From contig CP060219.1 in NCBI GenBank assembly GCA_023898365.1, positions 334,688-398,687 of the forward strand: a stretch of DNA of 64,000 nucleotides. Reading direction: 5' to 3'. Source of the DNA: Candidatus Woesearchaeota archaeon. GTDB taxonomy: Archaea > Nanobdellota > Nanobdellia > Woesearchaeales > GCA-023898365. Both the position numbers and the translations under genes were made by a program. Positions 33,358-55,500 of this stretch are shown here, piece by piece (within the stretch, counting starts at the first letter, position 1; each line of letters opens with the position of its first letter). The notes below the pieces were generated by a model. The model made no database searches. It was not told where the DNA came from and saw only the letters and a program-made list of their open reading frames with translations.

Positions 33358-34344
33358 ATGTCAGAAAAACAGCAGCGTAGGGCAGCAAAAGTTCCTTTAC
33401 GAGAACTAAACACGTTTCGTGCAGTTTTTGCAAAAGATATTGATAAAAGTTGCCGTCATGAAAAACAAAAAGATTACATGCTTATCGCTCTGCATAGCAA
33501 ACACGATGTTAAAGGCTACGACATTATTGAATACGACTTTAGCAAAAAAGAACCAAGAGATTTTCGCTCAGCTATCACTAAAGTGCTGCCAACCTATAAC
33601 AAATTTGCATTTGATCAACTCGGCTCGATTGCCATCATCGAAGTTGACGAAGAATTTCGTGACAAAGAAGAACTCATCGCAAAGACCCTTCTTGAAACCA
33701 ATGCGACGGTGAAAACTGTTCTGCGCAAAGATTCGACACATGAAAATGAGTTTCGCACACAAACCTACAAGTTTTTGCAAGGCGTCGAAACAAAAATTGC
33801 GACGATCAAAGAAAATAATGTGACCCTTTCATTCGATGTTGAAGAAGTATATTTTTCTGTTCGTCTATCTTCAGAGCGAAAACGTGTTGCACAACAAGTC
33901 AAAGAAAATGAATCAGTGCTTGTTATGTTTAGCGGAGCAGGACCATACGCAATGGTGATAAAAAAAATGCATCCGTCTGCAACAGTGACTGCAGTTGAAA
34001 TGAATCCTGAAGGACACCGGTGGGCAGTGCACAACGCTAAAATAAATAAACTAGATATTACCTGTGTTAATGAAGATGTGGGCAAGCTCGCACTGGGAAA
34101 AACGTTTGACCGCATTGTCATGCCCGCTCCAAAAAACGCAGAAGATTTCTTAGAAAAAGCAAAAGAACACGCAACACAAGGAACCATTATTCATTTGTAC
34201 TGCTTTGGAGAAGAAAATGAATTAGCAGAAAAAAAGAAAAGAATAGAACACGTCTTTTCAAAAGTCACGTTTCTTGGAGACACGGTGTGCGGCCAACAAT
34301 CACCCCGCATCTATCGCTATTGTGTTGATTTTCGCGTCGATTGA
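33358..34344 (+). CDS. trm5: tRNA (guanine37-N1)-methyltransferase Trm5 / Taw2-like class I methyltransferase
   Basis: Motifs VLVMFSGAGPYAMV (cf. Trm5 MFAGVGPFA) and VTAVEMNPEG, with a Met-10-like fold arrangement. Confidence 0.75.
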   Translation: MSEKQQRRAAKVPLRELNTFRAVFAKDIDKSCRHEKQKDYMLIALHSKHDVKGYDIIEYDFSKKEPRDFRSAITKVLPTYNKFAFDQLGSIAIIEVDEEFRDKEELIAKTLLETNATVKTVLRKDSTHENEFRTQTYKFLQGVETKIATIKENNVTLSFDVEEVYFSVRLSSERKRVAQQVKENESVLVMFSGAGPYAMVIKKMHPSATVTAVEMNPEGHRWAVHNAKINKLDITCVNEDVGKLALGKTFDRIVMPAPKNAEDFLEKAKEHATQGTIIHLYCFGEENELAEKKKRIEHVFSKVTFLGDTVCGQQSPRIYRYCVDFRVD

Positions 34345-35903
34345 AAATCATCTAAATTGATCTGACCCTTACGTTTGTTCTTTTTAACCACTTCAGGCAT
34401 GGGCTCACCAACTTGCTCTTTAAGCACGCGAGCAGTTGCGGGACCAACTAAAGAAGAAAGAGAAGTCGGGTCGATCTTTTTGAGATCCCCCACTGTTTTA
34501 AGCCCGTTGCGAAACAAAATTCTTGCACGAACACGACCAACTTGCTTCAAACGAAGCAAAGCAAGAAGTTCCTCTTTAACCCCGTACGAAAGTCGAACCC
34601 GTAATCGTTCAATATGTTTAATTAGATGTTGACGCTTTGTTAACTGAGATAATTCTTTAAGTGCGTATAACAACCAATCAATGGTTTCTCGCTTAAAATG
34701 TAACTCACCAGGACGCAAACCGAACTCGTCAAGCAAAATATCCTCGCCGACTTCTTCAATCCAAGAAAGAAAAACAAGGGTTGTTTTCATCCCGTCAAGA
34801 AATTCCGCATACTCATGGTCGTACATACTTGGTGGTTGAAAAACGAACTCGTGATCATGCGCAACAATAGCTTTTTCGATCTGCTCAAGCTCCTTTGTGC
34901 GAACACGCAGTAATGGACGAATCTCCTTAGTTTTCATCAATGCTTGAAGTAACGAAAAAGGAGAAGGATCATCAGAAAGAAGCGAAAGCGCATCAAGAAG
35001 TAATTTTGCACTGTACGGATCAAGATAAAGTTCTGCAACGCGCTTACCTAAAGGAGTTGCTTCAAGTTTACGAGGAGAAGAAGAAAGAAGTGAGGAAGCG
35101 GATTGGAAACCTTTTGCGTCCGAAGATGCTGAAGCAACCAAAAAACCCCACAATTCGAGTTCACCAATAATTTTTTCAATTTTAAGAGCCACCGCCTCAT
35201 CATCACCGTATTGATCAGCATAGAACGTTTCCGAAAAAAAATCTTTTACTTCCTCTTGCGAAAACACCATACCTGAAGCAACCAAACTCAACACATACAT
35301 ACGAAGCACCGGTTCAACAGCCAACTTAGAATCAATATCCTCCGGAACACCAAGTAAATACTTATCATGCAAGAGTTCTTTTTGATCAGAAGAATCTGCA
35401 AGCAAAATAGCCTCGCCAAAATCATCCTTACCGGGACGACCAGCTCGACCCATCATCTGCAACGCCTCAAGCACAGGAATAAAATATAACCCCCGCGCAC
35501 CATACCTGCGCAAACTCTTAATCACCACACGAAACGCAGGAAGGTTAAGACCAGCAGCGAGCGTTGGCGTAGCACAAATCACCTTAATACGTTTATCCTT
35601 GAAAGCAGACTCCACAAGAGAACGCTGAGCGCTATGAAGACCTGAATGGTGGAACGCGACGCCACGATGCACCACCTTAGACAAACGCTTACATTGCTTT
35701 GTAGGAGAAGAAACAGCCTTAAGGATGTTCTCAGAAAGCTCCTCACAAGAAGCAAGAAGATCAAGTTGGCTTGCGATCGCATCAGCCTGCGCCTCAGCAG
35801 AAGCCTTCGTTGGAGCAAACACCAAGATCTGTTTATCATTCGCAATAGTGTCAAGCGCCAAATCAACCAATTGATCACCAGATCGTTCAGTGAGAGAAAC
35901 CAT
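34317..35903 (-). CDS. Hel308/Hjm-type Ski2-like helicase containing domains 2-5 only (RecA2, winged helix, ratchet, HhH). The RecA1 ATP-binding domain is absent, so this is a candidate split gene or an N-terminally truncated gene.
   Basis: The ORF begins exactly at the domain-2 boundary (DKQILVFAPTKASAEAQA). It has motif IV/V VICATPTLAAGLNLPAF and motif VI QMMGRAGRPGKD. No Walker A, DExH or SAT motif appears in any frame upstream; nt 35904-36078 is non-coding repeat DNA followed by tRNA genes. Confidence 0.7.
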   Translation of the reverse strand: MVSLTERSGDQLVDLALDTIANDKQILVFAPTKASAEAQADAIASQLDLLASCEELSENILKAVSSPTKQCKRLSKVVHRGVAFHHSGLHSAQRSLVESAFKDKRIKVICATPTLAAGLNLPAFRVVIKSLRRYGARGLYFIPVLEALQMMGRAGRPGKDDFGEAILLADSSDQKELLHDKYLLGVPEDIDSKLAVEPVLRMYVLSLVASGMVFSQEEVKDFFSETFYADQYGDDEAVALKIEKIIGELELWGFLVASASSDAKGFQSASSLLSSSPRKLEATPLGKRVAELYLDPYSAKLLLDALSLLSDDPSPFSLLQALMKTKEIRPLLRVRTKELEQIEKAIVAHDHEFVFQPPSMYDHEYAEFLDGMKTTLVFLSWIEEVGEDILLDEFGLRPGELHFKRETIDWLLYALKELSQLTKRQHLIKHIERLRVRLSYGVKEELLALLRLKQVGRVRARILFRNGLKTVGDLKKIDPTSLSSLVGPATARVLKEQVGEPMPEVVKKNKRKGQINLDDFQSTRKSTQ

Positions 35904-35948
35904 TTACTTGCAGAAGTGAAGCTTTGTTTTAAACGTTTTGTTAAAGAA

Positions 35949-36093
35949 GCAGACAACAGAAAACAGAAAAAAAAAACATGAGCCCGGGGGGATATAGGAA
36001 CGCCAACAACAATTTGGCGTTTGTGAGCCTGCATACGCTAACACGTAGCAGACAACAGAAAACAGAAAAAAAAAAACATGAGCCCGGGGGGAT
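35949..36093. repeat. Two direct copies (35949-35993 and 36048-36093, 45 and 46 nt) of the tRNA-Ile 3'-terminal 15 nt plus its 30-nt poly-T trailer, separated by 54 nt. This is an att-like tandem duplication of a tRNA 3' end.
   Basis: The string gcagacaacagaaaacagaaaaaaaaa(a)catgagcccggggggat occurs twice. The second copy is continuous with the intact tRNA-Ile. Confidence 0.8.
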
Positions 36094-36152
36094 TTGAACC
36101 CCCGACCACACGATTATCAGTCGTGCACTCCACCAGACTAAGCTACGGGCTC
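36079..36152 (-). tRNA. tRNA-Ile (anticodon GAT)
   Basis: Folded manually. Acceptor GAGCCCG/CGGGCUC, anticodon stem CACGA/UCGUG with loop CUGAUAA, T-arm GGGGG-UUCAAAU-CCCCC and discriminator A. CCA is not encoded. Confidence 0.85.
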
Positions 36153-36162
36153 GAATAAAAAA

Positions 36163-36237
36163 TGGCGCCTCCGACCAGGATCGAACTGGTGACCTTGCGG
36201 TTAACAGCCGCACGCTCCACCGCTAAGCTACGGAGGC
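36163..36237 (-). tRNA. tRNA-Asn (anticodon GTT), with 3' CCA encoded
   Basis: Acceptor GCCUCCG/CGGAGGC, anticodon stem UGCGG/CCGCA with loop CUGUUAA, T-arm ACCAG-UUCGAUC-CUGGU, discriminator G then CCA. It lies 10 nt upstream of tRNA-Ile. Confidence 0.85.
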
Positions 36238-36302: not shown

Positions 36303-37061
36303 TCAAGTATCAGTAGTTTCCAACAATCCAAGCATTTGCACAACTTGTTCCAATGAAACAACATTACGTGGATCCACCCCGTGTACCTGTTCATACCACA
36401 ATGAAGCAACATTGCTTCTTGGAGATTGTATGACTAATTCTCTAATTGCATGGATCCTTCCTGAAGATTTCCTCGCAGTCATTGCAGAAACTGCCGTTTC
36501 AAAACAATACTCGTTGTAACCACCTCCAAAAAAAAGCTCATTATCTTTGAAAAGATATAGTTCTTCAGGGTGAAGAGGTAAACCAGAATCATATCTTGTA
36601 AAAATCACTTGATCAATCAAACCAACTTCAACTAGAATACTTGTTGCTGCAGCATAATGATGAGGGGTTTCTAGTGCAACAACTCCAAAAGGTGATCGAT
36701 TAGATCGTAAGCTGAGAAAAGCTAAGAGTGCATCCAGATATGCTTCCGCTTCGCGTCGAATTTCATCAGTCTCAATATAATGCATGTGACTAAGATGTAA
36801 ATAAAAAGGATGTACAAGCATCACCATTTGGTCTCCTTCTTGAGGCTTTTGATGATCTCTTGCGTGTTCTTGACAGGCGATCAGCAATTTTTTAAAATCT
36901 CCTCTTTGATAACAGTCATCATCCTTAGATTCTCGATTTCTCAAGTTAACTTCGATATGGGAAGTCCAACCCGTGAAATTACGATTCAAAACGGCCGAGC
37001 TAGCATTATTTGTTGCAGGTAAAGCAGTTCTTAAGTTGGGATCGTAAAAATTTGACATCAA
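36303..37061 (-). CDS. Hypothetical protein (252 aa) located between tRNA-Asn and tRNA-Thr
   Basis: Uninterrupted ORF. His-rich segment HPFYLHLSHMHYIETDE. No family recognised. Confidence 0.45.
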   Translation of the reverse strand: MMSNFYDPNLRTALPATNNASSAVLNRNFTGWTSHIEVNLRNRESKDDDCYQRGDFKKLLIACQEHARDHQKPQEGDQMVMLVHPFYLHLSHMHYIETDEIRREAEAYLDALLAFLSLRSNRSPFGVVALETPHHYAAATSILVEVGLIDQVIFTRYDSGLPLHPEELYLFKDNELFFGGGYNEYCFETAVSAMTARKSSGRIHAIRELVIQSPRSNVASLWYEQVHGVDPRNVVSLEQVVQMLGLLETTDT

Positions 37062-37144: not shown

Positions 37145-37226
37145 AGCCTCCGGTGAGATGAAACAAAGCAAAGCTTTGTGGATCTCACCTCAAACTAAAA
37201 AACAAGCCTCCGGTGAGATTTGAACG
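37145..37226. repeat. Two extra partial copies of the tRNA-Thr 3' end downstream of the intact gene: 37145-37160 (16 nt, followed by an inverted repeat that recreates the T-stem GGUGAGAU/AUCUCACC) and 37205-37226 (the 22 nt of the T-loop through the 3' end)
   Basis: agcctccggtgagat occurs at 37145, 37206 and 37307, the last being the real tRNA 3' end. Confidence 0.75.
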
Positions 37227-37306: not shown

Positions 37307-37378
37307 AGCCTCCGGTGAGATTTGAACTCACGACCGCCTGATTACAAGTCAGGCGCACTACCACTATGCTACGGAGGC
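37307..37378 (-). tRNA. tRNA-Thr (anticodon TGT)
   Basis: Acceptor GCCUCCG/CGGAGGC, anticodon stem CCUGA/UCAGG with loop CUUGUAA, T-arm GUGAG-UUCAAAU-CUCAC and discriminator U. Confidence 0.85.
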
Positions 37379-42136: not shown

Positions 42137-45100
42137 CTAATTATATTTTCTGTTTCTCCAGCGATCACGCACGTAGCTGACAATCATCATAAGGATCGTT
42201 ATTGCAATAACCCCTCCTACTGCAAGAACAACCCGTTCAGAAAGTAAATCGGTGAGGGTCACCATACTAAAAAGACCTCTTGGAGAATCAAGATTTATTT
42301 CATTCTTCTCATTATCAATTAGATACTTACATCCATTTATGATGTTATCAAGCTCGGTTAATGCTTGAGAGATAGGAATACTTGATGCTCTTCGTTCAAG
42401 CTCGGTAAGCAGTTCGTTCATTTCAGCACAGGCAGGGTTTGAAGCGAGAAGGTCTCGAGCAAACGTAACTTTTACTTTGTATGCTTCTTCATCGTCAGTT
42501 GATTTCTCAAGAGAGTTGATATGAATTGTTGCGGAGTCGCTTGCAACGGGATCGTCTGTTGTGACATTCACGACGATTTCATACGTGCCACTCGTGCGAT
42601 AATTGCCAAGAGTAAGTAACGTAGATGCGTTCTGCCCAATACCAAGTGAAGCAACGTAATCCTCACTGAATGTTACCGTAACATTTTCAGAGCCGGCAAT
42701 TGCGTTAAAATTAATTCCGTAGAGCGAATCATCCCAGGTGTTCACAACAGTGATGGGAACCGTGACCGTATCATTTTCATAAACGGCAACTACATCGCTA
42801 ACCACTATTGAGAACGGTTCAGGAGAATCAACTTCTTCCTGGAAAGGCACAGTAACTGTTGTGGTTACTGTTCTTGTTCCGCCAGGATTGTTTGATGTTT
42901 GCACATCAATTACAGGATCGGGAACATTAGTAATGACAATGCGAACCGTATTCGAAGAAACATATGCTCCTGCGTCATCAGTTGCGTTGAAGACCACATC
43001 ACAGTACCCTAATGATGTTGGAGTAATGGTTAAAGACGTATCTGTTATGCTCAGTGTTGCAACAGAGCAAGATTCGCCGTAGGCTAAAGAGAAGTTTAAG
43101 GTTGACGATTCCGCACCATCAAGCAAACCATTTGCGCTGGTATCATCATCTGCATCGTAAAAACGCTGAACGCTGTTACGATATATAAAATAATTTGCAA
43201 GTGCAGTTGTTTGTGAAACAGAGAAGTTATCAAGAGGACCATAAAATACAGGAGGACGATTAAGATTGGCAATAGTAATATTCCAACTAAAGTTTGCCGT
43301 GCTATAATACGCATCAGTTGCACTTACGACAATATCATGTGTTCCCGCGGTTGAAAAGTTAAATGATCTGGTGTAATTTGAATTGACCCCCGGGTCGACA
43401 CCAGGCAAATTAAGTTTCTGCACACCATCAACATACCATCTGTAAGAAATATTATTATTTATCTGGGTCGTGTCGTTTGTCGCGAGCGCATCAAACGTAA
43501 CAGTTGCGTTTTCTGAAAAATTGATGGTGATGTTTGTCAAACCACCAACGACAAACCATGAAGTGTTTAGTGAGGTATTTGACATGAAAGGAGTCACTTG
43601 GGTAAATTGAGGGGGAACAGATTCGTTGTAAATGGTGATGTTAACAAGCTGCCAATCGACCAACCCACCCGCATCAGTAACTGAAGCGTTTGCTTCGTAC
43701 ACCCCATACTCTCCTGATTGAGGAACAAAAGAAACAGTCACTTCATTGACATCCGTTTTTGAGTAAGCAAAGCCCGTTGGTGATGCCCCTGTAAAAGCAA
43801 AGTTAAAGGTCAGATTATCATCAAGAACAAAAAAATCAATATCAGTTGCGTAAAAAACATTTTCATAGAGAACATCTTCAACAAGAATGCCAAAATTGAT
43901 GGCATCAGACACATTGTCTTGATTATTGTCCCATATTGGCGCATCGTTTGCATTGCCTATTTCAAAGGAAAGAACTTCATAATCGCACACATTTGCAAGA
44001 TCACAGACCGAAACATTCAATGTTTTATTTCCAACTTGCGCATTTGTTGGTGTAAAATTCATCCAATAAAGCGTCATGTTACCTTGCACCAGACCAAGGT
44101 TTGACGCGTTAAATCCTGCTTCGTATGCAAACGACCAAGTAAGGTTGTCTCCGTCGCGATCAATTGCGGTAAAGTATGATGAACCAAGAATGCCTTGCGT
44201 ATAATTAACAAGAGAAACAGTCATTACAGGCACCGAATTGTTACGAATAGTGATGTTTGCAATAGCAGTTGTTATAGCCTCACCATCATCAACATACACT
44301 TCGAAGAGGTAATTTCCAATTAGACCTGGACCGACTGTAAAATTAAATTCTCCCGATGTGCTATTAATAGTGAAATTAGAATGGTTTGTTGAAAACGTTA
44401 AGGTATCGCCTGCATATGTTAGTTGGTCAACATCAGAATAATTAAGTGGTGAGGAAAACGTTGCATTCACATACCACGTAAAATTTGAAAGATTGTATAT
44501 GCCGTCGGTTAGTTCGTAAATTACCGGAGCATCATTTAGGTTTAAAATGTTAAACGTGACATTATTCTCCGTATAGCCTCCATGATCATCAGTTACTCGA
44601 ATGCGGACGTTTCGGCAGGCGACGTGGTCATTTGTCATAATTTGGTTGATCACGATAGAAGCGTTCGAACCGTTCACTAAGGTGGTGAATGACCAAGGAT
44701 TTGAAAGGGAGCACGTGCGGGGCGTGATAGTGAACGTGATATTGTCTGCAACATCTGCATCGGAAGCGTTGATATAAAACGTGAAGAGATCTGACTGATT
44801 AGTATCAGGAGTGACTAGGTTCGATGTGATCTGCGGCAATTGATTAACAGCTGAAACGTTAATGGTAAAAGAGGTTTCAACTGGCGGCAATAAACTTGCA
44901 TTGTCGCTAATGTTCATATACACCGTCCACAATCCTCTGTCAGCAAATTGAGGCGCGTTGCTTGGACGGTTAAAGGTAACATACCCTTCCGTGTTTGATG
45001 ACTGAACAAAAATAATTGAAGCAAGATCAGTGCTCATGTTAAAGGTGAACGGTTCGTCTCCTTCCTCATCAAACCCAGAAATTGAATAATTAAACGTGAT

Positions 45101-45775
45101 GTCTTCTGTCGCCTGTTGATTCGTTAAATTTGGTAAAAAATATGCTTGATCATTTACTTCTGCAACTGTGTAGGTTACGGTAATTCCTAAGAGCGAGGGA
45201 GTGTCATCTTTTACATAAAAAGTAAAATTGGTGTCACCAATATGTGCTGCTAAAGGTATGCACGTGACTAATCCCGCCCCAGAAATATCGCAGTAGTTTG
45301 TTCCGTCCGTTTCTAAAAAGGTCAGCGCATCACCATCGGGATCAAAAGCTGAAAGCTGTGTTTGGAAAACGACATCTTCTGTTAAGAGCTCATCAGTTGC
45401 ATTTGGAAGGTTAGGAAGGGAATTATTAATGGTGAACAATTTTCCTGCGGTGGCGCTTGTCGAACCATTCCACAACGTCACATTACAACTCCATCGTTCA
45501 CCACGCTGCGCAATATAGGAAAGTAACGTCGTGCGATTGTCAGTGAACGGAATGTTTGCAACTGTCGTGTAAGGAGAACTGCCATTATACCAAGTCACGT
45601 TTTGTTGTACGGTGTCAATTGAGGGTTTCCAAGAACAGATAATGTTGTCTCTTGTTGTAGGAGTTGACGGCGAAATGCTCGGCAGCGTAGAAAAATTTAC
45701 TGCAAGCGCAAATGCTATGATGAAGAGGGCAAGCGAAGTCACAACAAGTGTTTGGAAGAGGTCAACTCGTTTCAT
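42137..45775 (-). CDS. Giant cell-surface glycoprotein-like protein (~1213 aa from MKRVD) with a signal peptide, a sequon-rich beta-rich ectodomain and a C-terminal TM anchor
   Basis: Signal peptide MKRVDLFQTLVVTSLALFIIAFALAVNF, dozens of NxS/T sequons and the C-terminal TM helix VVLAVGGVIAITILMMIVSYV followed by a basic tail. The track ORF starts further upstream at 45841 and overlaps the RHH gene. Confidence 0.7.
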   Translation of the reverse strand: MKRVDLFQTLVVTSLALFIIAFALAVNFSTLPSISPSTPTTRDNIICSWKPSIDTVQQNVTWYNGSSPYTTVANIPFTDNRTTLLSYIAQRGERWSCNVTLWNGSTSATAGKLFTINNSLPNLPNATDELLTEDVVFQTQLSAFDPDGDALTFLETDGTNYCDISGAGLVTCIPLAAHIGDTNFTFYVKDDTPSLLGITVTYTVAEVNDQAYFLPNLTNQQATEDITFNYSISGFDEEGDEPFTFNMSTDLASIIFVQSSNTEGYVTFNRPSNAPQFADRGLWTVYMNISDNASLLPPVETSFTINVSAVNQLPQITSNLVTPDTNQSDLFTFYINASDADVADNITFTITPRTCSLSNPWSFTTLVNGSNASIVINQIMTNDHVACRNVRIRVTDDHGGYTENNVTFNILNLNDAPVIYELTDGIYNLSNFTWYVNATFSSPLNYSDVDQLTYAGDTLTFSTNHSNFTINSTSGEFNFTVGPGLIGNYLFEVYVDDGEAITTAIANITIRNNSVPVMTVSLVNYTQGILGSSYFTAIDRDGDNLTWSFAYEAGFNASNLGLVQGNMTLYWMNFTPTNAQVGNKTLNVSVCDLANVCDYEVLSFEIGNANDAPIWDNNQDNVSDAINFGILVEDVLYENVFYATDIDFFVLDDNLTFNFAFTGASPTGFAYSKTDVNEVTVSFVPQSGEYGVYEANASVTDAGGLVDWQLVNITIYNESVPPQFTQVTPFMSNTSLNTSWFVVGGLTNITINFSENATVTFDALATNDTTQINNNISYRWYVDGVQKLNLPGVDPGVNSNYTRSFNFSTAGTHDIVVSATDAYYSTANFSWNITIANLNRPPVFYGPLDNFSVSQTTALANYFIYRNSVQRFYDADDDTSANGLLDGAESSTLNFSLAYGESCSVATLSITDTSLTITPTSLGYCDVVFNATDDAGAYVSSNTVRIVITNVPDPVIDVQTSNNPGGTRTVTTTVTVPFQEEVDSPEPFSIVVSDVVAVYENDTVTVPITVVNTWDDSLYGINFNAIAGSENVTVTFSEDYVASLGIGQNASTLLTLGNYRTSGTYEIVVNVTTDDPVASDSATIHINSLEKSTDDEEAYKVKVTFARDLLASNPACAEMNELLTELERRASSIPISQALTELDNIINGCKYLIDNEKNEINLDSPRGLFSMVTLTDLLSERVVLAVGGVIAITILMMIVSYVRDRWRNRKYN

Positions 45776-45938
45776 GTGAAAGTAACCGCTTAATTGTTTT
45801 ATTTTTCTGAACATAGGTCTTTGTCTTTGCTGCGAGCTCATCTAAGACCAGTTCTTTAATCGTTTGCTGAGAAATAACTGATGCTAAACGCAAGCGTTGA
45901 TGCAAGTCGTCAGGTAAAGCAATATTCAGTCGTCCCAT
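45762..45938 (-). CDS. Small ribbon-helix-helix (CopG/Arc/MetJ-like) protein, 58 aa. Unannotated in the ORF track.
   Basis: Manual translation: MGRLNIALPDDLHQRLRLASVISQQTIKELVLDELAAKTKTYVQKNKTIKRLLSHETS. The N-terminal beta-strand plus helix (RLNIALPDDLHQRL) is the classic RHH signature. Its stop overlaps the surface-protein ATG. Confidence 0.55.
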   Translation of the reverse strand: MGRLNIALPDDLHQRLRLASVISQQTIKELVLDELAAKTKTYVQKNKTIKRLLSHETS

Positions 45939-46210: not shown

Positions 46211-48274
46211 TTACTTCTTTGCCCACGTTAATGAATACGTAATTTGCAAGAATAACCGATGCAGATCGTAAAAGACCATGTCCTTTTGCTGCTGCGTTAA
46301 TGGGTCGAACACCTCTTTTAATTCAAAATATTTGCGCTTTGCAATCTCCGTTTCTTGAAATTCGAGGGCTAAGAGTGCATTACGAACACCTAGCTTAATA
46401 CGTTCCACAGGATTTCCTTCGAGATCCAATTCTTGCACAACACGATGAACGTCGCGTTCTTCAACAACGCTAATTTGATACACGAGCATCCGAAGTTCTT
46501 CGATAAGCAACGGAATATCTGCAAAAGTTACTCTGCGATGTTTGAACTCGAACTCAGAAACCTTTGTGTTAAACGATAAGAAAATCTTCTGCAACGTTTC
46601 GGACTTAATTTTTGTGCGAATTTCCTCAAGCAATTCGTTTGATTCGTACTCAAAAGCAAGATCAAACGTTTGTGAAAAAAAGAAGCGACTGAAATCCATG
46701 AGCGAATCAAGAAGCTTTTCAAGAGCGTCTTTTGCAGGATCATTTCCTAACGAAAGAAGTTTATTTTCAAGTGCGGCGAGTTTTACGAGTAAATCATTCT
46801 TTTGGGTTTCCCTGATAAGAATCTGCTTTCGAAATGAAGAAAGCAAGAACCAACCAAGCGTGACCAGCGCTTTATTAATCTTCGTTGAGAATGCACGGTA
46901 TAACACTGCAAGCACAGCAACAGAAAGAATACCGACCATGATAACCCCTGAAAAGACAGGGTTTGTTTCTTCAAAAAAAGAAGGAGATTGCACACCAATA
47001 CAAGGAGAGCAAGGCCCACCACAATCAACACCCTCTTCATCTTGGTTTTTTATACCATCAAAACAAGTCTCGCATGGCTCGCAAATAGGCCCGCCACAAT
47101 CAACACCCACTTCATCATAATTTCTAATGCCATCATGACAATTCTGGCACGGAGCGCAATACGGTCCACCACAATCAATTTCTTCCTCTTCATTATTTAA
47201 TTGGCCATCAGTGCAATTGCCACACGCAGGACAGGGACCCCCACAATCAACACCCTCCTCGCCTTGATTTTGTTCGCCATCAAAGCACGTCAGCAAATAT
47301 TCACATTCTTGCCAGTAATACTTTTTATACTCATTAGGATCACATGCATAAATATCGACACATTTGCGTCGCTGCGTGCCATTACGCAAACACGCACCCC
47401 AATCAGCACATTTCCATAAAGAGGTACAATCGGTAATACTCACACTCGAAGAGGAAGGAGAAGTAGTTTCTTCTTGTACTTCTTGTCGGCAGTTAACTTT
47501 AATTCTCACCAAATTACTTTGAGCGGAAAGATCACCTGGGTCCGTGGCAGTGAAAATAACATACTCCTCTGCGCAAGTAGAGCCTCGAATAAGTACTTCT
47601 CCAGTATCTTCAACAATCACAATATTAACGGAAGAAGTTGGCGTTACCGAAAAATTCAACGTATCACCGTCAGGATCATCAAAATAATCGTTAAGCCAAA
47701 AAACACTGTACAAAATATCTTCTTGAAGCGTTTGATCAGGAATAGGAGATTCTAAATTTGGAGGATCGTTAATATCTAGAACAGTAAATGTGTAGATGGA
47801 AGACGCATTGTTGTTGTCACATCCACTGTTGTCAACAACTTCAATTAATGATTGGTGCAGACCAACAGAAGCTTGAAATCCGTTCAAAGAAAGTGTTGTC
47901 CCAGTGAGCGTAGTGTTCATTTCAAAAACTTCAGTGGCAGAAATAGTATATCCTCCCTCATCAATAATTGAAATGACACACTCATACGCATTATCAACAA
48001 GCGCTGTTGATTGGTTAAAAGTTGCTGAACACCCAGAAAGATCGATAACTGGACGTGCATTAAAACACATTTGCACAGACCCTGTCGCCTTCCCCGAAGC
48101 ATCTGAATTCGTGTCGTGATACATAAATCGCGCAACACTACCTAGTAAGAGAAGATTCTGAGCTATTAAGAAGATCGCTACAAAGAGCACAATTCCTGTA
48201 AACAAACGATCAGATTTCGTTCGAGTAGCAGCAAGATGCTCAAGTGGTTTTTTCTTGTGTTTAGCGCGCTTCAC
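46211..48274 (-). CDS. Surface protein (687 aa) with an N-terminal TM/signal anchor, an ectodomain containing 4 tandem 25-aa Cys-rich CGGP repeats, a second TM helix and a cytoplasmic coiled-coil tail
   Basis: Repeat units of the form C-x-DG-x-x-N-x-x-E-E-G-VDCGGP-C-x-x-C, occurring four times. The underlying ~75-bp nucleotide repeats (ggcccaccacaatcaacaccc) lie at ~47013, 47089, 47164 and 47236. The TM helix VIMVGILSVAVLAVLY is followed by a helical K/E/L-rich C-terminus. Confidence 0.65.
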   Translation of the reverse strand: MKRAKHKKKPLEHLAATRTKSDRLFTGIVLFVAIFLIAQNLLLLGSVARFMYHDTNSDASGKATGSVQMCFNARPVIDLSGCSATFNQSTALVDNAYECVISIIDEGGYTISATEVFEMNTTLTGTTLSLNGFQASVGLHQSLIEVVDNSGCDNNNASSIYTFTVLDINDPPNLESPIPDQTLQEDILYSVFWLNDYFDDPDGDTLNFSVTPTSSVNIVIVEDTGEVLIRGSTCAEEYVIFTATDPGDLSAQSNLVRIKVNCRQEVQEETTSPSSSSVSITDCTSLWKCADWGACLRNGTQRRKCVDIYACDPNEYKKYYWQECEYLLTCFDGEQNQGEEGVDCGGPCPACGNCTDGQLNNEEEEIDCGGPYCAPCQNCHDGIRNYDEVGVDCGGPICEPCETCFDGIKNQDEEGVDCGGPCSPCIGVQSPSFFEETNPVFSGVIMVGILSVAVLAVLYRAFSTKINKALVTLGWFLLSSFRKQILIRETQKNDLLVKLAALENKLLSLGNDPAKDALEKLLDSLMDFSRFFFSQTFDLAFEYESNELLEEIRTKIKSETLQKIFLSFNTKVSEFEFKHRRVTFADIPLLIEELRMLVYQISVVEERDVHRVVQELDLEGNPVERIKLGVRNALLALEFQETEIAKRKYFELKEVFDPLTQQQKDMVFYDLHRLFLQITYSLTWAKK

Positions 48275-48331
48275 ACCCTACCAACCCCATATCACCATGC
48301 AAGACAGGCTCGTATATAAATGTTTTGAGCC

Positions 48332-48784
48332 CTACTTCTCATAAAAAGCCAAAACAACGTCTCCAGAACAGTTAAGATCCATTTCTTCTGGTGGAGCGGT
48401 GACATGGAATTGTAATTCAAAGGTTTCATCAGCGGCAAGAGAAAATGTTTTGTTACGCACCCACAAAAACTCCGTACACGCACCATCAAGCGAAACAAAG
48501 ACGTCAGAAGGAAAAGGAGAGGTAACAAACAAAGTTCGCGAGGCTGCTGAACCAGGCGTTAAAGTGCCAAGATGGATAGCGTCAGTTCCCACATCAAAAC
48601 CTGCAAGATCAGAAACATAAAAATCATAAGGAACACGCCTCACTTCATCAGGTTCAATAACATTCCAATAAGAGAAATAAGCAATTATTAGCGAAACAGA
48701 AACAAGCAACACAAGTAAAACCAAGATAACAAGCCAGTTTGTTGAAACGTCTTGAGGTGATGGTTTTTTTGTTGCGCGAGCCAT
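48332..48784 (-). CDS. Small N-terminally anchored extracellular protein (150 aa), hypothetical
   Basis: N-terminal TM helix WLVILVLLVLLVSVSLIIAYF followed by a beta-rich domain. Confidence 0.5.
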   Translation of the reverse strand: MARATKKPSPQDVSTNWLVILVLLVLLVSVSLIIAYFSYWNVIEPDEVRRVPYDFYVSDLAGFDVGTDAIHLGTLTPGSAASRTLFVTSPFPSDVFVSLDGACTEFLWVRNKTFSLAADETFELQFHVTAPPEEMDLNCSGDVVLAFYEK

Positions 48785-48795
48785 GGGAGGTCACC

Positions 48796-49944
48796 TTACT
48801 TTTTTCTCATGCGAAGGAAGGCAATGACAACAACCGCTAAGAAGAGGAAGTTGACAACAAGGACAAGGACCAGCCAATTGGAAAGAATTGACTCTTTTGT
48901 TGGTTCTTCAGTTGTTAAAAGAAACTCTGCAGGAAAGGACTTTGTCGCTCCCGCAAATGAAGCGAGAATCTCTCCTTCATACATTCCTTGCTTAAGATCT
49001 GTGGTGTCAACATATACATACGTGCTCTTGCGGTGCAGGCCTGGAAGGTCAATTGCAGGAGATGAGTCAGACCAGCGATCATCAATACGCACTTTAACAG
49101 AGACATCAGAAATCATTTCAGTCCACAGGCTCTCCAATTCAACATTCAACCTGGAAATCTTATCGATAAGCGTAACATTCTGATAATCGTAAAGATCAAC
49201 ATCGAGCTCGCCGACAACAAACTTTTTCCATGCGGATCGCGAGACGATGTCGCCATTATCCCCATATTGGAAGACTACGCTCATATTGTAGTTTCCAGGA
49301 AGAAAGGTGTGTGAAGGAATAACAATAAGGAATTCATCAGCACCCGCAGGTTCGAGAAGAATGTTTGCAACAGTCGTAGAATACACAGTCTGTCCTTGAA
49401 AATCAGTAACGGTGAGAACTGCTCGTGAATCCGAAAGAGGAAATGAGCCTCGATTATAGACGCGTAACGTGACGTTTGCATCAAAACCTACTTTCGCGTT
49501 TGGCATATCAAAACCAAATTCTGCATAGTTTCCTGGATAGGGAACGTCAATAAACATCTGCACCTTCGCACCAGTTCGTGCAGATGCGCCAGCAGTTGCT
49601 TGGTACGCTTCAATTGCTTGGAAATACGTTAATGTTCTCCCATATTTCGTGAATTCTTGAGGAAGCGTATAATTAATTGTCACGCGAGCAGAACCAGAAG
49701 GACCTGGAATAAAAACCTTATCTTCAGCAATACTAAAGACTTCTTCATACGTTCCATAAATGTCAAAGTGCATATACACATCTTGCCCAGCAGTGTGTTG
49801 CACCGTAATATTAAATTGACCAGAATCACCAGGAATGGGTTCAATAAAAACCCTCGGAGGAGAAACACCAACAGCAAGAACAGAAGATATGGCGCAAAGG
49901 ACAAATAGGACAACAAACAATGTTGATTGCATTCTATTACCCAC
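48796..49944 (-). CDS. Surface protein (382 aa) with a signal peptide and a C-terminal TM anchor. A paralog of the 413-aa protein at 51311-52552.
   Basis: Signal peptide LFVVLFVLCAISSVLAVG. C-terminal WLVLVLVVNFLFLAVVVIAFLRMRKK. Shared motif FIDVPYPGNYAEF versus FRFNVPYPGKYLKAEV. Confidence 0.6.
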   Translation of the reverse strand: MGNRMQSTLFVVLFVLCAISSVLAVGVSPPRVFIEPIPGDSGQFNITVQHTAGQDVYMHFDIYGTYEEVFSIAEDKVFIPGPSGSARVTINYTLPQEFTKYGRTLTYFQAIEAYQATAGASARTGAKVQMFIDVPYPGNYAEFGFDMPNAKVGFDANVTLRVYNRGSFPLSDSRAVLTVTDFQGQTVYSTTVANILLEPAGADEFLIVIPSHTFLPGNYNMSVVFQYGDNGDIVSRSAWKKFVVGELDVDLYDYQNVTLIDKISRLNVELESLWTEMISDVSVKVRIDDRWSDSSPAIDLPGLHRKSTYVYVDTTDLKQGMYEGEILASFAGATKSFPAEFLLTTEEPTKESILSNWLVLVLVVNFLFLAVVVIAFLRMRKK

Positions 49945-49999
49945 CTAACACCACCTCAAGGAAAAATAAAGGAAAAGAAAAAAGTAAAAAAAATAGGCC

Positions 50000-50656
50000 T
50001 TATGCCTGCGTTACCGTGAACGTCAGATTGAAATCGTGTCGTCCAGTATTTACTCCAGAGGGAACCATCATCGCAACATCGATGGCAAGTGTTCCTGCAG
50101 GATCAAGATCATCACAAACGACATGTTCTATCATCGCTCCTGCGGTGAAGTTCACATAACCACCATTCGTTCCAAGAGTTCCAGCGCAGTCATCTCCTGT
50201 TTCTGTTGTCTTATACGCAAGCCATGAAAGATCTTCTGCATACTGCGAGTCAAGAATGAAATATCCTGCTGAAGTGTTTTGAGCTTCACCCGTCTTACTT
50301 GGAGTCACATTAACATAACCTTGTACGTTCCCATTATTTTGCAAGTCAAATTGATCAGCATTAAAACCAGTACAAACTGATGCAGTATCATTTGAGTCAT
50401 CAGATGTGATGGTAGAATTTGCTCCTGCTTGTGGCTGGCAATTTCCAAAGTCAATATCCGAATCAAGCAACGTAATTGATGCCTGAGCACTCACGTTTAG
50501 GAGAACAGAACCGTTTGCAAGTGATGCAAAACCCGTTATGTCCGTTCCTCCTCTTGACATAGAAGAAAGTAAGTTCAAACTCATCATTGTTCCGCCAAGA
50601 GATACTACCAATGCCGCAACAAGAATCATTGCGAGCGTTCGATTTGAAACATCCAT
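50000..50656 (-). CDS. Secreted or N-terminally anchored protein (218 aa), hypothetical
   Basis: N-terminal hydrophobic helix LAMILVAALVVSLGG followed by an S/T/N/G/D-rich domain with sequons. Confidence 0.5.
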   Translation of the reverse strand: MDVSNRTLAMILVAALVVSLGGTMMSLNLLSSMSRGGTDITGFASLANGSVLLNVSAQASITLLDSDIDFGNCQPQAGANSTITSDDSNDTASVCTGFNADQFDLQNNGNVQGYVNVTPSKTGEAQNTSAGYFILDSQYAEDLSWLAYKTTETGDDCAGTLGTNGGYVNFTAGAMIEHVVCDDLDPAGTLAIDVAMMVPSGVNTGRHDFNLTFTVTQA

Positions 50657-50677
50657 TCTAAATCACCTTACACTTTG

Positions 50678-50920
50678 TTAATTAACAATATTTAATGTCA
50701 CCTTTCCTGAAATAGGAGAAGAAGGTTCCGAAATTGCAAGTTGGACTTGCCCAAGTGCCGAATCAAGCCGTTGTACAGCAGAATCGGATGGTTGCGGGGA
50801 AGTCGTATCAAGTTGACTTACATGCACCAAAATAGTGAACGTGCTCACTAGAGAGAACACGACCGTCAGAAATACCAACACAACCACTACATGTCTTGAG
50901 ATATCAACCATACACAACAC
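50678..50920 (-). CDS. Small N-terminally anchored protein (80 aa), hypothetical
   Basis: N-terminal TM helix VVVVLVFLTVVFSLVSTFTILV. The ORF could be spurious. Confidence 0.35.
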   Translation of the reverse strand: MLCMVDISRHVVVVLVFLTVVFSLVSTFTILVHVSQLDTTSPQPSDSAVQRLDSALGQVQLAISEPSSPISGKVTLNIVN

Positions 50921-50957
50921 GCCTTTTTGTTATTACTTTCCAAAAAATAAAACTCAT

Positions 50958-51311
50958 TTAAATATGTTTCGAAAAACTGGCTTGCATTTTCTTCTCAGCC
51001 CGCTTAAACACCGTCCAAATCGTTCGATTGTCACGACACAACAGTTTCGCGACATCCTTATACGCTAGTTTTTTCTCATGATGCAGATGATACACTAATG
51101 CTTCAAAGATAGTTAATCGTCTATCTGAGAACACCGACAAAGGAACTGAAGCAGACGATTGAGAAGAAGTTACGCGCGTAAAAAGAGATTCGTTTTGTTT
51201 ACGTTGCTCCACATCAGAAAATGCGGGCGAGAGAGATACAGAAGGGGACAAGAGCATACCTTGTATGAGAACGAATTGATTTAGTTGCGAATCAAAATAG
51301 GAAGTATACAT
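50958..51311 (-). CDS. Small HTH_10 (Bat/sigma-70 region-4-like) DNA-binding protein (117 aa)
   Basis: C-terminal RLTIFEALVYHLHHEKKLAYKDVAKLLCRDNRTIWTVFKRAEKKM matches the HTH_10 pattern LT..E.L..A....Y....ELA..LG.S..T...HLRRAE.K. Confidence 0.5.
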   Translation of the reverse strand: MYTSYFDSQLNQFVLIQGMLLSPSVSLSPAFSDVEQRKQNESLFTRVTSSQSSASVPLSVFSDRRLTIFEALVYHLHHEKKLAYKDVAKLLCRDNRTIWTVFKRAEKKMQASFSKHI

Positions 51312-52552
51312 CAGACCTTCCTCCTTGAGCGCATAACAAAGAAAATGATGACAACATTTGAAACAAGAACAATAAGGACGAGCACCACAATAAGACCGAT
51401 GCCTGACGAAGAAGACTCCTTTGCGCCACCTACAACTTGACCAGTTACCTCGCCAAACTTCTCTAAAGAAACTTCGTCTGGTGCAATCACCGCAGAATAG
51501 ATGTCGCTTCGCACCTTCCCATCATAATGCAACGTCACATCAAAATCATACGTGCCAGGCAATATATCCTTTGTATCCCAAAACCCTTTGAGAACAGCGC
51601 TTGAAAACGCAGGCAAACGTTCAGTAGGGGTTTTAAAGGAAGTTACTTCGGCACCGTTTGTCTCCCGCAAGATAACTTCAGCATAGAGTTCCTCAATAGG
51701 ATTATTCCATAAACTGCGTACCAGAAGATCGATGCGAGCAATTTCTCCAAGATGATATGAAGAAACTGCAAAGCTTGCCAATTCTACCGAAAGAGATCCT
51801 GCTTCAAAGATACGATCCTTGATAAGCGATTCTCCATCATACGTAATTGATGCTTTCAACGTGTACGTACCAGGGTTAGGCGGCGTCCATAACGCAGTAA
51901 GTTTTCCTTCCTCTTTTGAGGGAAGCGAAATTTCAGAAGAGGTAACTGTGCCAACAACCTCATTAGCAGGGTTAAGAACGGTGAAGGTTGCGCGCACTGC
52001 TCGCAAAGGATCAGTTCCGACATTCATCGCGGAAACAATGAACTCTACAACATCCGTTCGAGGAACTGCGGTAACTTCAGCTTTAAGATATTTCCCTGGA
52101 TAAGGAACATTAAAACGGAATTGAGAAATAACTGCGGTCGTTGCGGCAATAATGCCATTATCAGTTGCAACAGAATTAACTTCTCCATTACCAAGAGATT
52201 CAGGAAGAAGCAAAATAACCATTTCGAGCATGTGAAGGCCGGGTTCGATATCTCGTGGAAAAGTAAAACTAAACGAGACCGTTTTTTTCTCATCACTCTC
52301 ACGAACCGTAATAACACCAATATCTGATTTGACCGCATCAGATAAGACGCCTGTTGGATACACACTTACTTTGAAACTCTCCCTGTTCGGATTAAGAATG
52401 TCAAATGATAACTGAACAGTCTGACCAGGAGCATAATCTATCAATCGTGCTGCAGGAGAAACAGTAAGGGCAGAAACTTGCGTAACACAAAGCACACTCA
52501 CTAACAAAAGCAAGCCAAGCAACAAACCTTTACTTTGTGTTAATTGTTTCAT
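51311..52552 (-). CDS. Surface protein (413 aa) with a signal peptide and a C-terminal TM anchor; a paralog of 48796-49944
   Basis: Signal peptide LLLGLLLLVSVLCVTQVSA. C-terminal IGLIVVLVLIVLVSNVVIIFFVMRSRRK. Start codon overlaps the stop of the giant gene in an ATGA arrangement. Confidence 0.6.
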   Translation of the reverse strand: MKQLTQSKGLLLGLLLLVSVLCVTQVSALTVSPAARLIDYAPGQTVQLSFDILNPNRESFKVSVYPTGVLSDAVKSDIGVITVRESDEKKTVSFSFTFPRDIEPGLHMLEMVILLLPESLGNGEVNSVATDNGIIAATTAVISQFRFNVPYPGKYLKAEVTAVPRTDVVEFIVSAMNVGTDPLRAVRATFTVLNPANEVVGTVTSSEISLPSKEEGKLTALWTPPNPGTYTLKASITYDGESLIKDRIFEAGSLSVELASFAVSSYHLGEIARIDLLVRSLWNNPIEELYAEVILRETNGAEVTSFKTPTERLPAFSSAVLKGFWDTKDILPGTYDFDVTLHYDGKVRSDIYSAVIAPDEVSLEKFGEVTGQVVGGAKESSSSGIGLIVVLVLIVLVSNVVIIFFVMRSRRKV

Positions 52553-55500
52553 GGAGGATTATCCGCCGTAGCCAAAAAGACAATTAATGTCGACTTAATT
52601 CCTGGCGTCTCATATGTAGGAATGGTAATTTTGAAATCTACTTGTGCCTGATCTTTCGTGTCATTATACTGTAATGTGTGGATGAAACGAGTTGAAACAT
52701 TCGTCACATTAAGCCAACTCGTCGAACTGCCTGTTGTGTTAAACGAAGAAGCCTCATCTTGATCGGCTTTGTACTGGAAGTAAGAGGTGTTGAGTTCTTC
52801 AGTAACAAAGAAACTCTGCGTTGCATTTATTGAAACATTGATGCGCACATTACCATCATTACGAATAACCATAGGAGAAGGGTCATCATCAGTCGAATCA
52901 TCAGTTACCCCCGGATTAAGATTTGAGAAATCAGTCTCATTCGTGACAAGAGAAATACTCACCACATTAGTTACATTAAAGAAATGAGGTGAAGAAAAAT
53001 TAGAACAGCCGTAAAAATCACATGCACGCACTTGGAATTGGAAGGAGCCAGAACTATATTGGGCCAACGTACATAACTCAGTTGTTGTTGTATAATTGTT
53101 GATGTTTTGCGACGAGTTTAGCAAGAAACCATAACAACCAAGACCACTTGGCGCCGTTAAGTTAACCGTGTAGTTAATATCATCTCCGTCCGCATCAGTT
53201 GACGCCGTCCAATTAAATGTAGGGAAACGATTCGTTATTGTTGATTCATTATCAGGATAATCAAGAACAGGAATGGAAGGAAGAGAATTTCCAATAGAAA
53301 CCGCATCAGAATAATTGGTACTTCCAGACCCCGCATTTCCATCATAAGGAGTCACGGTGCAATTCCATGATTCACCAAAAGACGTATGAGCATAATGTAA
53401 AATGCTTGAATCTCCAACTCCCGATGTTTGACCGGATTCGTTTGCAGAAGAATAGTATGCGTCGTTCTTAAACCACGAAACATTTGCCCATAATGTTTCT
53501 CCAGGATTGGAATCGGTTATGGTAAAAGAACATGTCAAATTCTGCGTCGCATTAGGATTTGATGGAGTGATGACGGGTTTATTTACTGAAGGATCAGAAT
53601 TTACAATGCTTAAATTAGTTGAGTTTCCCCAAGAGGATTGATACACTCCATCATCCAATTGAATGCTACAATTCCAATTCTCTCCAACCGACGTATTGTC
53701 GCTTGTGAGAATTGCATAGAATGCTTGGCTTGAGGGATAGTCGTTATTGTAATACCTTGTTTGGTCAAGAACACCATCTTTGAACCAGCGAACAGAAACA
53801 TTTAGATTGTCAAGATCGGAATCATAAATAGTTGCAGAACAATTCAAGTATTCATTGGAACTGTTCATGCCATTTTCTGAACGTAGTTGAGGCGAAGGAG
53901 TTGTTGGCGCAACAGTAACAACAGTCAAATTCACACTATAACCCCATCCACTAAATTCTGCGCCATCGTCAAGACGCATCGCACACGACCAATTATCGCC
54001 AACAGAAGTGTTTGTATAACCCAAAACAGTATCAACAGCAACTTCGTTCGCGTATGAATTGTTGTAATAATCAGTTCTGTCTAATACTCCATTAAGATAC
54101 CATCTCACCGTCACATTAGTGTCATTTCCATTTGGATCATTAACTTGCGCGAAACAATGCAGATCCTGTCCTGTCGCGTTCGAACCATCAGTTGAGTTGA
54201 TTCCTGGCAAAGGAGTATCAGGAGTTGTTGCACCTGGGTCAACGGTAACTTCGCGCGAGGAAGTAGCAATGTTTCCCGCACCATCAATTGCCCACGCAGA
54301 ATAGCTATAGGTTGCAGGAGAGAGATCGCTCTGGTTTCGATATAACCTATTTACTGTGTTGTTATACACCGAACTTATTTCTGCAGCAGTTAAATTGGTG
54401 TTCCAAATTATAAGTTCGTCGAGCATACCTTCAAAGGGTTTGTTAGAGTCACGAATATCATAACCAACAGCCAAATCTCTTGCTGAAAGAATATTTCTTG
54501 CAGTTCCCCCCGTAGAATTGTCTAAAGACCCATCAATGTACACATATGCTGTTGATGATTCTCGCACCACCACCACGTGATGCCACTCTCCATCATCAAC
54601 TGATGATGCAGAATTTAATTGGAATCCATAACTTCCAGACCAATCATAAAAGTATATTGGTCCAGTAGCACGAACAAGAACAGAGTATTGGCCGGTTGTT
54701 ATCTCATCCCGTTGTTGCAGAATTGTTTGCCAGGTACCGGTGCCGTTCGTTTGTAACCAGAAAGAAACAGTAAACGGACCAGTGCCTGAAAGAGGGCCCG
54801 AATCTGTGGGAAATTCTAAATGATTGTTTGTTCCATCAAAATATAAACCGTTTCCATACATGGCAGGAGCAACATCATTAATTGACAACCCGTCCGTGAA
54901 TCTTCCGAAATTATTGTTAGAAGAGTTATCTTTAACACCAGTGGTGTTAACATATTCAAAATTGTAATAGGCAACAAGTGATCCATCCCAATCAAAAAAC
55001 GCGGAGGTGTCAAGCGAATCACTTATTGAAGTGTTCAAAGTAGCGTGATTAAGTGTTCTTGAAGAGCCATCTACTGGTGTTGGCGAGAGCCAAGTAATGA
55101 CTGGAGGAGTCGTATCTGCAAGAACTGAGAACGTGTCCGATGTCGACATCATGTTTGCGTCAGTGTCAATTGCTTGAAGATTAATCGAATACAACCCAGT
55201 CACCGTCAAATTTTGTGGTGTTAAGTTAATATCACCTGTTGCGTCAGTTGATGAAAATATGACCGTGCCATTGGGATACGTGACATTGAAAAGAACGGTG
55301 TCAAGTCCTGACCCGTCAACAGCTGACCAGTTCACGTAGATAGTGTCGACAGACAAAGTAGCAGTAGATGCATTTTTGTATATTTCAACAAGCGGGTCGA
55401 TAAGTACAGTATATGACCTATTTGCAACAGTCATATTTCCCCCTGCATCTATTACGATTGCAGAGAAATTGTAATCAGCGTTTGATAAGCCGGTGAAGTT

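Follow-up and report, generated by a model that had tools for sequence, protein, structure and literature searches.

Short-range duplication of a tRNA-Ile 3′ end with att-like geometry, and recurrent miniature tRNA-end duplications in Woesearchaeota

We find that the 3′ end of a tRNA-Ile gene in a 64-kb stretch of the metagenome-assembled genome of Candidatus Woesearchaeota archaeon (DPANN; contig CP060219.1; this whole stretch is the window, and coordinates are window positions unless a related locus is named) is duplicated together with its trailer, and that 53 nt of foreign or filler DNA came in along with the 46-nt duplication. The repeat is confirmed as genuine, and duplications of the same kind recur at tRNA genes of related archaea. 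We read the tRNA-Ile locus as the footprint of a recombination event in the T-arm of the gene, with the attachment-site (att)-like geometry of integrative elements that target tRNA genes, a reading to which we give about an even chance.

The tRNA-Ile gene, both copies of the repeat, and the helicase gene beyond them are all on the minus strand. In that reading direction, the direct repeat has the form ATCCCCCCGGGCTCA TG T10/11 CTGTTTTCTGTTGTCTGCT, and each of its two copies consists of 15 nt of tRNA-Ile (ATCCCCCCGGGCTCA, Sprinzl positions 59–73), with the start of the block inside the T-loop, followed by 31–32 nt of trailer. The proximal copy (47 nt, 36047–36093) comprises tRNA-Ile positions 59–73 at 36079–36093 and the trailer TG-T11-CTGTTTTCTGTTGTCTGCT; it completes the functional tRNA-Ile (GAU) and also carries the oligo-T terminator, and the gene as a whole (36079–36152) is intact, does not encode CCA, is called by ARAGORN, and scores 68.7 bits against the Rfam tRNA model. 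The distal copy (46 nt, 35948–35993) is the displaced tRNA 3′ end and trailer with T10; it lacks the 5′ partner strand and therefore cannot adopt a tRNA fold. Going 3′ from tRNA-Ile, the minus strand reads trailer, 53-nt spacer, distal copy, 44 nt that include a TTTAAAA motif, and the helicase ATG. One T in the homopolymer is the sole difference between the copies, and none of 100 dinucleotide shuffles of the window yielded a comparable match. As at tRNA att sites, part of a tRNA is directly repeated and one copy completes an intact tRNA. An initial annotation of this DNA, made from the sequence, was right that the tRNA-Ile 3′ end and trailer are duplicated and slightly off in its measurements: the unit is 46/47 nt rather than 45 nt, the gap is 53 nt (35994–36046) rather than 54 nt, and the hairpin that it placed between the copies is present with a stem of 7 bp, extendable to 8–9 bp, where 6 bp had been given. 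After the T-run, the duplicated trailer (35948–35966 and 36047–36065) consists of about 2.7 tandem heptamers (CTGTTTT CTGTTGT CTGCT), an arrangement prone to slippage.

An independent short-read assembly (Logan, SRR12358676, k = 31) breaks exactly inside the block on both sides. One of its contigs (L002) terminates at ...GGGCTCATG-T10 and another (L001) begins G-T10-CTGTTTTCTGTTGTCTGCT-T, and the proteins encoded by the flanking genes on these two contigs are identical to those of the window. With k = 31, a contig start exactly one base into this 31-mer implies a predecessor with two continuations, as would be expected if the block precedes both the spacer and the helicase leader. A false duplication of a 100-bp stretch during assembly is thereby largely refuted, and we regard it as extremely improbable. 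The copies do differ in homopolymer length alone, which is typical of sequencing uncertainty, but the spacer is unique sequence with no collapsed or expanded tandem unit, the independent assembly branches at the block on both sides, and the same architecture is found in a dozen metagenome-assembled genomes and metagenome contigs from different assemblers.

The spacer (35994–36046, minus strand) is unique in the window and unrelated to the tRNA body, to its flanks, or to other tRNAs. It is not a decayed tandem tRNA copy, or pseudo-tRNA: local alignment to tRNA-Ile gives p = 0.38, with values above 0.06 in all 12 cases, and Infernal finds not even a weak tRNA match in the spacer region at E-values up to 10. 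An origin as a copy of the flanking DNA before or after the repeats is rejected as well (p = 0.76–0.85), and so is simple tandem duplication or slippage, as the copies lie 53 nt apart and the spacer has no similarity to the sequence before the first copy or after the second. Since the spacer is unrelated both to the tRNA body and to the neighbouring DNA, foreign DNA entered the locus and no tandem copy was made. The spacer matches no known RNA in Rfam, at E-values up to 10 for the window region and up to 1 for five related loci. Its hairpin, formed by ACGCCAA and TTGGCGT around a 7-nt loop (36000–36020), has ordinary stability (z = −0.3 to −1.8), and no promoter-like TATA is visible ahead of the spacer.

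A second array of like kind starts 1.2 kb away at tRNA-Thr (UGU; 37307–37378, minus strand). Eighty-one nucleotides after this tRNA, positions 53–73 are repeated as a second copy of its 3′ end (21 nt, 37205–37225, minus strand), which is followed by T6, and 45 nt further on positions 59–73 appear once more as a third copy (15 nt, 37145–37159, minus strand). The two extra copies are nested, both ending at the discriminator base, and the 15-nt copy shares its T-loop start with the tRNA-Ile block. The first strong T-run of the array, T6, comes only after the second copy. Its first spacer (81 nt) opens with TTGAACTC, complementary to the T-arm, and its second spacer (45 nt) contains GGTGAGAT, complementary to the copy that follows.

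Duplications of this type are frequent in relatives of the window. The survey set comprised 160 related Woesearchaeota/Nanoarchaeota loci together with the window, making 161 stretches with 1.94 Mb and 91 predicted tRNAs; loci are named by number where they must be told apart. The 3′-end 11-mer of a tRNA recurs downstream in 8 cases and upstream in none, the 5′-end 11-mer recurs upstream in 3 cases and downstream in none, and words of 8–10 nt keep the same polarity (8–10 downstream 3′ copies versus 0–1 upstream) without a pile-up of shorter blocks. When tRNA-Ala of L025 and two degenerate copies are counted, some 12–14 of the 91 tRNAs are affected, or about one in eight. End-copies always lie on the outward side, 54–219 nt from their own tRNA, and the inserts between copies measure 39–205 nt. 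All nine 3′ blocks start at positions 53–63, in the T-loop or the 3′ strand of the T-stem, and none starts in the acceptor stem, though 8-mers would have detected such blocks. Seven of the nine end 0–2 nt from the tRNA 3′ end, while the block at tRNA-Ala of L025 adds 9 nt of trailer and that at tRNA-Ile adds 31 nt. The 3′ repeats range from 14 to 47 bp, five of the nine being 14–17 bp long. Of the 211 short-range direct repeats measuring 13 nt or more, 14 fall in tRNA genes, which make up 0.36% of the DNA.

L032, a relative of L074, lacks the 3′ case seen there, and in an empty-site comparison of the tRNA-Asn loci L074/L032 and L003/L023 the intergenic DNA could not be aligned at ~73% coding identity. 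We do not claim that the spacers form one sequence family, as their similarities failed multiple-testing correction: two similarities, between tRNA-Thr and L003 and between L038 and L077, have per-pair p-values of 0.006 and 0.00045 and are weak after 132 comparisons, and the hexamer TCGCTC, present in 4 of 12 spacers versus 0.14 expected, is borderline after correction. An nhmmer profile of a module built from L077, L064, L009, and L038 found no further copies.

The strict polarity, the break points in the T-arm, the blocks that end at the tRNA end, and the nested tRNA-Thr array lead us to rank an att-like footprint first among the explanations of the tRNA-Ile locus. In the order of events that we infer, as we do the agency of a site-specific recombinase, incoming DNA bearing its own tRNA-Ile 3′ end would have recombined with the gene at or near position 58/59. 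The incoming copy (36047–36093) would then complete the tRNA and provide the oligo-T terminator, the original end (35948–35993) would be displaced 53 nt downstream, to just before the untouched promoter of the next gene, and the incoming DNA would either have been mostly deleted later or have measured only ~100 bp from the outset. The nested copies at tRNA-Thr resemble the outcome of successive integrations. The footprint of an integrase-type element, as originally annotated, is borne out in its geometry, that is, in the start in the T-loop, the intact tRNA, the outward position of the copy, and the recurrence of the pattern; it is accompanied by no element, integrase, or attachment site of an element (attP), and the identity of the trailers fits it poorly.

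Several findings weigh against this reading. A Pfam scan of 38 ORFs (open reading frames) of at least 90 aa in the window, from position 1363 to 52552, finds no Phage_integrase or other recombinase, Cas1, or transposase domain, and eight tested ORFs without a Pfam match have no match in PHROG either, so that no viral or plasmid gene was found. That no element remains between the copies had been annotated correctly: the 53-nt spacer is all that separates them, and an integrase-bearing element is found neither between nor beside the repeats. The annotation had also proposed a search for further copies of the block, or for a free element, in genomes and metagenomes; exact scans of public collections turned up none. 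An exact 25-mer of the trailer is absent from the GTDB genomes, IMG/VR, and the JGI metagenomes, the spacer has no exact copy in the GTDB species genomes, the JGI metagenomes, or IMG/VR (0 matches in IMG/VR for its left-half 24-mer), and eight IMG/VR matches to the tRNA 15-mer lie in GC-rich coding DNA with no tRNA nearby, as expected by chance, so that no virus or plasmid bearing an attP emerges. The identity between att copies should be confined to sequence common to an element and a range of hosts and should end near the tRNA 3′ end, as it does in seven of nine related cases; at tRNA-Ile it runs through 31 nt of a non-conserved, lineage-specific trailer that the attP of an element is not expected to share, and L025 behaves likewise over 9 nt. 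Known archaeal att repeats are ~44 bp long, lie 9–23 kb apart, and enclose a whole or split integrase gene (bioRxiv 10.1101/2022.07.05.498093), whereas the separation here is 53 nt. No end-copy lies more than 219 nt away, even though 3 kb or more of sequence was available on that side for 69 of the 91 tRNAs, and a relic of a large element would thus be proposed for a lineage whose sample contains no full-size example. The cases span at least seven tRNA species and would call for many different elements. Finally, in two related loci (L077, 5626–5850, and L064, 5570–5870, minus strands) a copy of the first 22 nt of tRNA-Asn, with a spacer, precedes the tRNA-Asn gene, and 70 nt of this leader are 100% identical versus ~77% identity in coding DNA; such conservation weighs against a neutral scar, since neutral scars should diverge. 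One IMG/VR match to a 19-mer of the spacer hairpin was discarded, as it lies inside a viral ORF, has mismatched flanks, and is at chance expectation.

An insertion with a long target-site duplication, which we consider unlikely and yet take seriously, would begin with staggered nicks in the T-arm and at or beyond the tRNA end, followed by fill-in around a short insert; both copies would then be derived from the target, and the agent would be a casposase or Cas1-like integrase, or break repair at a heavily transcribed tRNA gene. This would directly account for the perfect copying of the non-conserved 31-nt trailer (9 nt in L025), for hits on many tRNA species without a matching donor for each, and for inserts that are always tiny (39–205 nt), and the five of nine 3′ repeats with 14–17 bp come near the 14–15 bp of casposons. 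However, the scanned window ORFs contain no Cas1/casposase or transposase domain, the spacers lack terminal inverted repeats, the repeats vary from 14 to 47 bp with no fixed stagger, and most blocks stop precisely where the tRNA does, an outcome simpler to obtain from a donor-borne tRNA fragment. The locus could also be a rearrangement joint: a recombinase would have acted on two sites derived from tRNA-Ile elsewhere in the chromosome, and the resulting shift or inversion of a segment would have placed the distal copy and the helicase beside the tRNA cluster. The upstream neighbour of the helicase varies in almost every relative, with tRNAs there in a minority, so that the junction is evolutionarily mobile, and inversions driven by integrases between tRNA fragments are reported in Thermococcales (PMC5495485). 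But such a joint requires a second tRNA-Ile end with an identical 31-nt trailer, of which there is none in the window, and it leaves the tRNA-Thr array and the uniformly short spacing elsewhere unexplained; we regard it as decidedly improbable.

Somewhat different in kind is the proposal that the duplicated end and its spacer have a function at the tRNA locus, for instance as an alternative 3′ exon or T-loop proto-intron that the splicing endonuclease would remove, as a processed by-product RNA, or as an additional terminator or insulator before the helicase promoter. A role of this sort is improbable in our judgement, although the conserved 70 nt of the L077/L064 leader speak for it, their hairpin keeping its stem while the loop has changed, and so does a 31-nt stretch of the leader (TGGTTACGC...ACGCAAGG) that recurs before tRNA-Ile in L009, a locus that is otherwise unalignable. 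In addition, the tRNA-Asn gene of L064 has a 30-nt insertion at T-loop position 59/60, which we read as an intron and which adjoins the positions where the tRNA-Ile and tRNA-Thr blocks start, and several 3′ spacers open with a stretch that can pair with the T-arm (p = 0.017; 13/13 in L003, 8/8 at tRNA-Thr of the window), the kind of exon-pairing piece that an intron needs. In one published model, tRNA introns arise from integration (PMC3293823). Against such a function, the T11 run, a strong archaeal terminator, stands between tRNA-Ile and its spacer, and this spacer has neither a T-loop complement nor, judged by eye, bulge-helix-bulge (BHB) geometry. The spacers have no Rfam match, the stability of the hairpin is ordinary, the 3′ case of L074 is missing in L032, and a promoter-like TATA is not seen before the spacer.

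With T11 ahead of a spacer that encodes nothing recognisable, no T-loop pairing, and no visible promoter, we judge the distal copy at tRNA-Ile to be probably inert today. A BHB tRNA intron at this gene is rejected, as the tRNA is uninterrupted, T11 follows it, and the 53-nt spacer shows no T-loop complement, with BHB geometry judged by eye; a split or permuted tRNA is rejected too, as tRNA-Ile is complete without the distal fragment, which makes that fragment redundant, and no leader with complementarity is seen. The apparent L064 intron and the T-arm complements fit the published idea that integration seeds tRNA introns. Among the 5′ cases we also note three tandem GGCATATTATATGAT units upstream of tRNA-Asn in L064, and an intron-bearing tRNA-Ile in L009 (3800–4070) that was read by eye, and is reported by neither ARAGORN nor the Rfam scan; a degenerate copy of the 5′ end of this tRNA lies ahead of it. 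The L009 leader and the tRNA-Pro leader in L038 have a GGGTTTC...TCAAGCCC hairpin in common.

Archaeal elements use both 3′ and 5′ parts of tRNA genes, and their events can stack at one tRNA (PMC3293823; bioRxiv 10.1101/2022.07.05.498093). The attL and attR sites of SSV-type and pNOB8-type elements (PYG1 in Pyrococcus yayanosii, TKV) are alike in that a 3′ or a 5′ tRNA part can be used and stacking is possible; the window differs from them in its 53-nt gap, in the lack of any integrase found in 64 kb, and in the 31 nt of host trailer within the repeat, and no full-size example is seen in the 1.94 Mb of related DNA. Sugahara et al. (2012) describe a 1.8-kb insert with a recombinase gene between a tRNA fragment and the gene (PMC3293823). 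Our cases resemble theirs in the tRNA fragments beside intact tRNA genes and in the apparent T-loop intron of L064, and the break points coincide with the known non-canonical archaeal intron positions 58/59 and 59/60, whereas in the window nothing interrupts the tRNA, and its terminator comes before the spacer. Some integrases are reported (Williams 2002) to prefer a T-loop sublocation in tRNA and tmRNA genes, a class that comes from bacterial islands and prophages with an adjacent integrase, and we know of no description of it for DPANN archaea. Its blocks likewise run from the T-loop or T-stem to the tRNA 3′ end, but here no enzyme is identified. Cis-mobilisable elements (CIMEs), including decayed ones, retain only their att sites, extend over kilobases, and occur next to intact elements related to them; our cases are alike in having two att-like copies with no recombination genes between them and differ in that the remnants measure 39–205 nt and have no known parent element. 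Casposons, which make target-site duplications of 14–15 bp and target tRNA 3′ ends, are alike in duplicating the tRNA 3′ end, at 14–17 bp in five of nine of our cases. The tRNA-Ile duplication, at 46–47 bp, is longer, and the window has no Cas1 domain, no terminal inverted repeats, and no multi-kb element, so we do not class the locus with them.

More broadly, we put forward, tentatively and well short of an even chance, that Woesearchaeota tRNA genes are recurrent targets of ~50–200-bp insertions that duplicate the stretch from the T-arm to the 3′ end, or from the 5′ end to the D-arm or anticodon stem, and that never involve a kilobase-scale element. These insertions would represent either a new class of miniature tRNA-targeting insertions or repair or transposition with long target-site duplications, they would supply raw material for non-canonical T-loop and D-loop introns and for the structured tRNA leaders of DPANN archaea, and tRNA-Ile of the window would be a young, still perfect example. 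Taken alone, the tRNA-Ile locus is a small and probably inert scar; it is the frequent, polar, and always miniature duplication of tRNA ends in the reduced genomes of Woesearchaeota that is of broader interest. Should it prove to be a separate process, it would offer a directly testable route by which archaeal tRNA genes gain fragments, non-canonical introns, and structured leaders, and would thereby bear on the origin of tRNA fragments and introns, a question open since the discovery of split and multi-intron tRNAs. In that case DPANN archaea, of whose mobile elements almost nothing is known to us, would also have an unrecognised recombination activity. In annotation, fragments of this kind can distort tRNA counts as well as prophage borders that are drawn from att sites.

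The gene next to the distal copy encodes a Hel308-type helicase of 528 aa (34317–35903, minus strand) with Helicase_C, Helicase_dom4_arc, and HhH domains and, by Pfam, no DEAD/RecA1 domain. Its product is identical to NCBI H6502_01845 (Candidatus Woesearchaeota archaeon), and residues 14–490 align with residues 228–689 of the 720-aa Hel308/Hjm of P. furiosus (2zj2_A). The gene had initially been described as truncated at the duplication, a claim that does not survive comparison: the best 120 of 4382 homologues, all from Woesearchaeota/Nanoarchaeota, are 503–548 aa long with the same domain content and no DEAD domain, and the start residue of the gene is shared by 160 related loci, although the upstream genes are unrelated and differ almost everywhere, tRNAs being found there in only a minority. 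The closest homologue has only 51% protein identity. The predicted product is therefore best described as a conserved, free-standing, split-type Hel308 that was not truncated by the duplication event, so that the lesson of the helicase is a negative one, a normal gene and no casualty of integration. The N-terminal half was not found in the window, where none of the large ORFs scanned has a DEAD domain, and the missing RecA1 part is presumably encoded elsewhere in the genome. The TTTAAAA motif (35927–35933, minus strand), TATA-like and ~27 nt upstream of the helicase ATG, is likely the promoter of this gene by archaeal promoter geometry; it lies 3′ of the distal copy and would have been left untouched by the duplication. 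A further ORF, of 390 aa and MCM-like (10451–11623, plus strand), has only P-loop and lid domains with the N-terminal domain absent, and is possibly another split or shortened replication gene.

On its other side, tRNA-Ile is preceded by tRNA-Asn (GUU; 36163–36237, minus strand), which has no end-copy and lies just 10 nt upstream (36153–36162, TTTTTTATTC); transcription of tRNA-Ile either passes through a T6 run or starts from a promoter within tRNA-Asn. Between tRNA-Thr and tRNA-Asn is a 252-aa ORF (36303–37061, minus strand) that has no Pfam or PHROG match and so gives no evidence either way on a mobile origin; its product, taken from the second start codon, is also present in the Logan assembly of SRR12358676. 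The neighbourhood is one of housekeeping genes, among them PEP (phosphoenolpyruvate) synthase, an AlaX-like protein, uridine kinase, TrmB, an rRNA methyltransferase, Pelota, and TYW2/Trm5, with DUF212, a BatA/VWA-DUF58-MoxR set, ABC transporters, and peroxiredoxins as further neighbours. Base composition is flat over the region, and the window also contains an archaeal RNase P RNA.

Several ORFs at 46211–52552 have no Pfam or PHROG match. Two very large ORFs on the minus strand, 52549–63987 (3812 aa) and 42137–45841 (1234 aa, with a weak Ig-like domain match only), likely encode surface proteins. Away from predicted tRNAs, the survey set holds other short-range direct repeats, in L071 at 7628–7920 (78 nt, with a spacing of 172 nt), in L021 at 1–225 (46 nt, spacing 177), and in L132 at 9089–9315 (31 nt, spacing 194).

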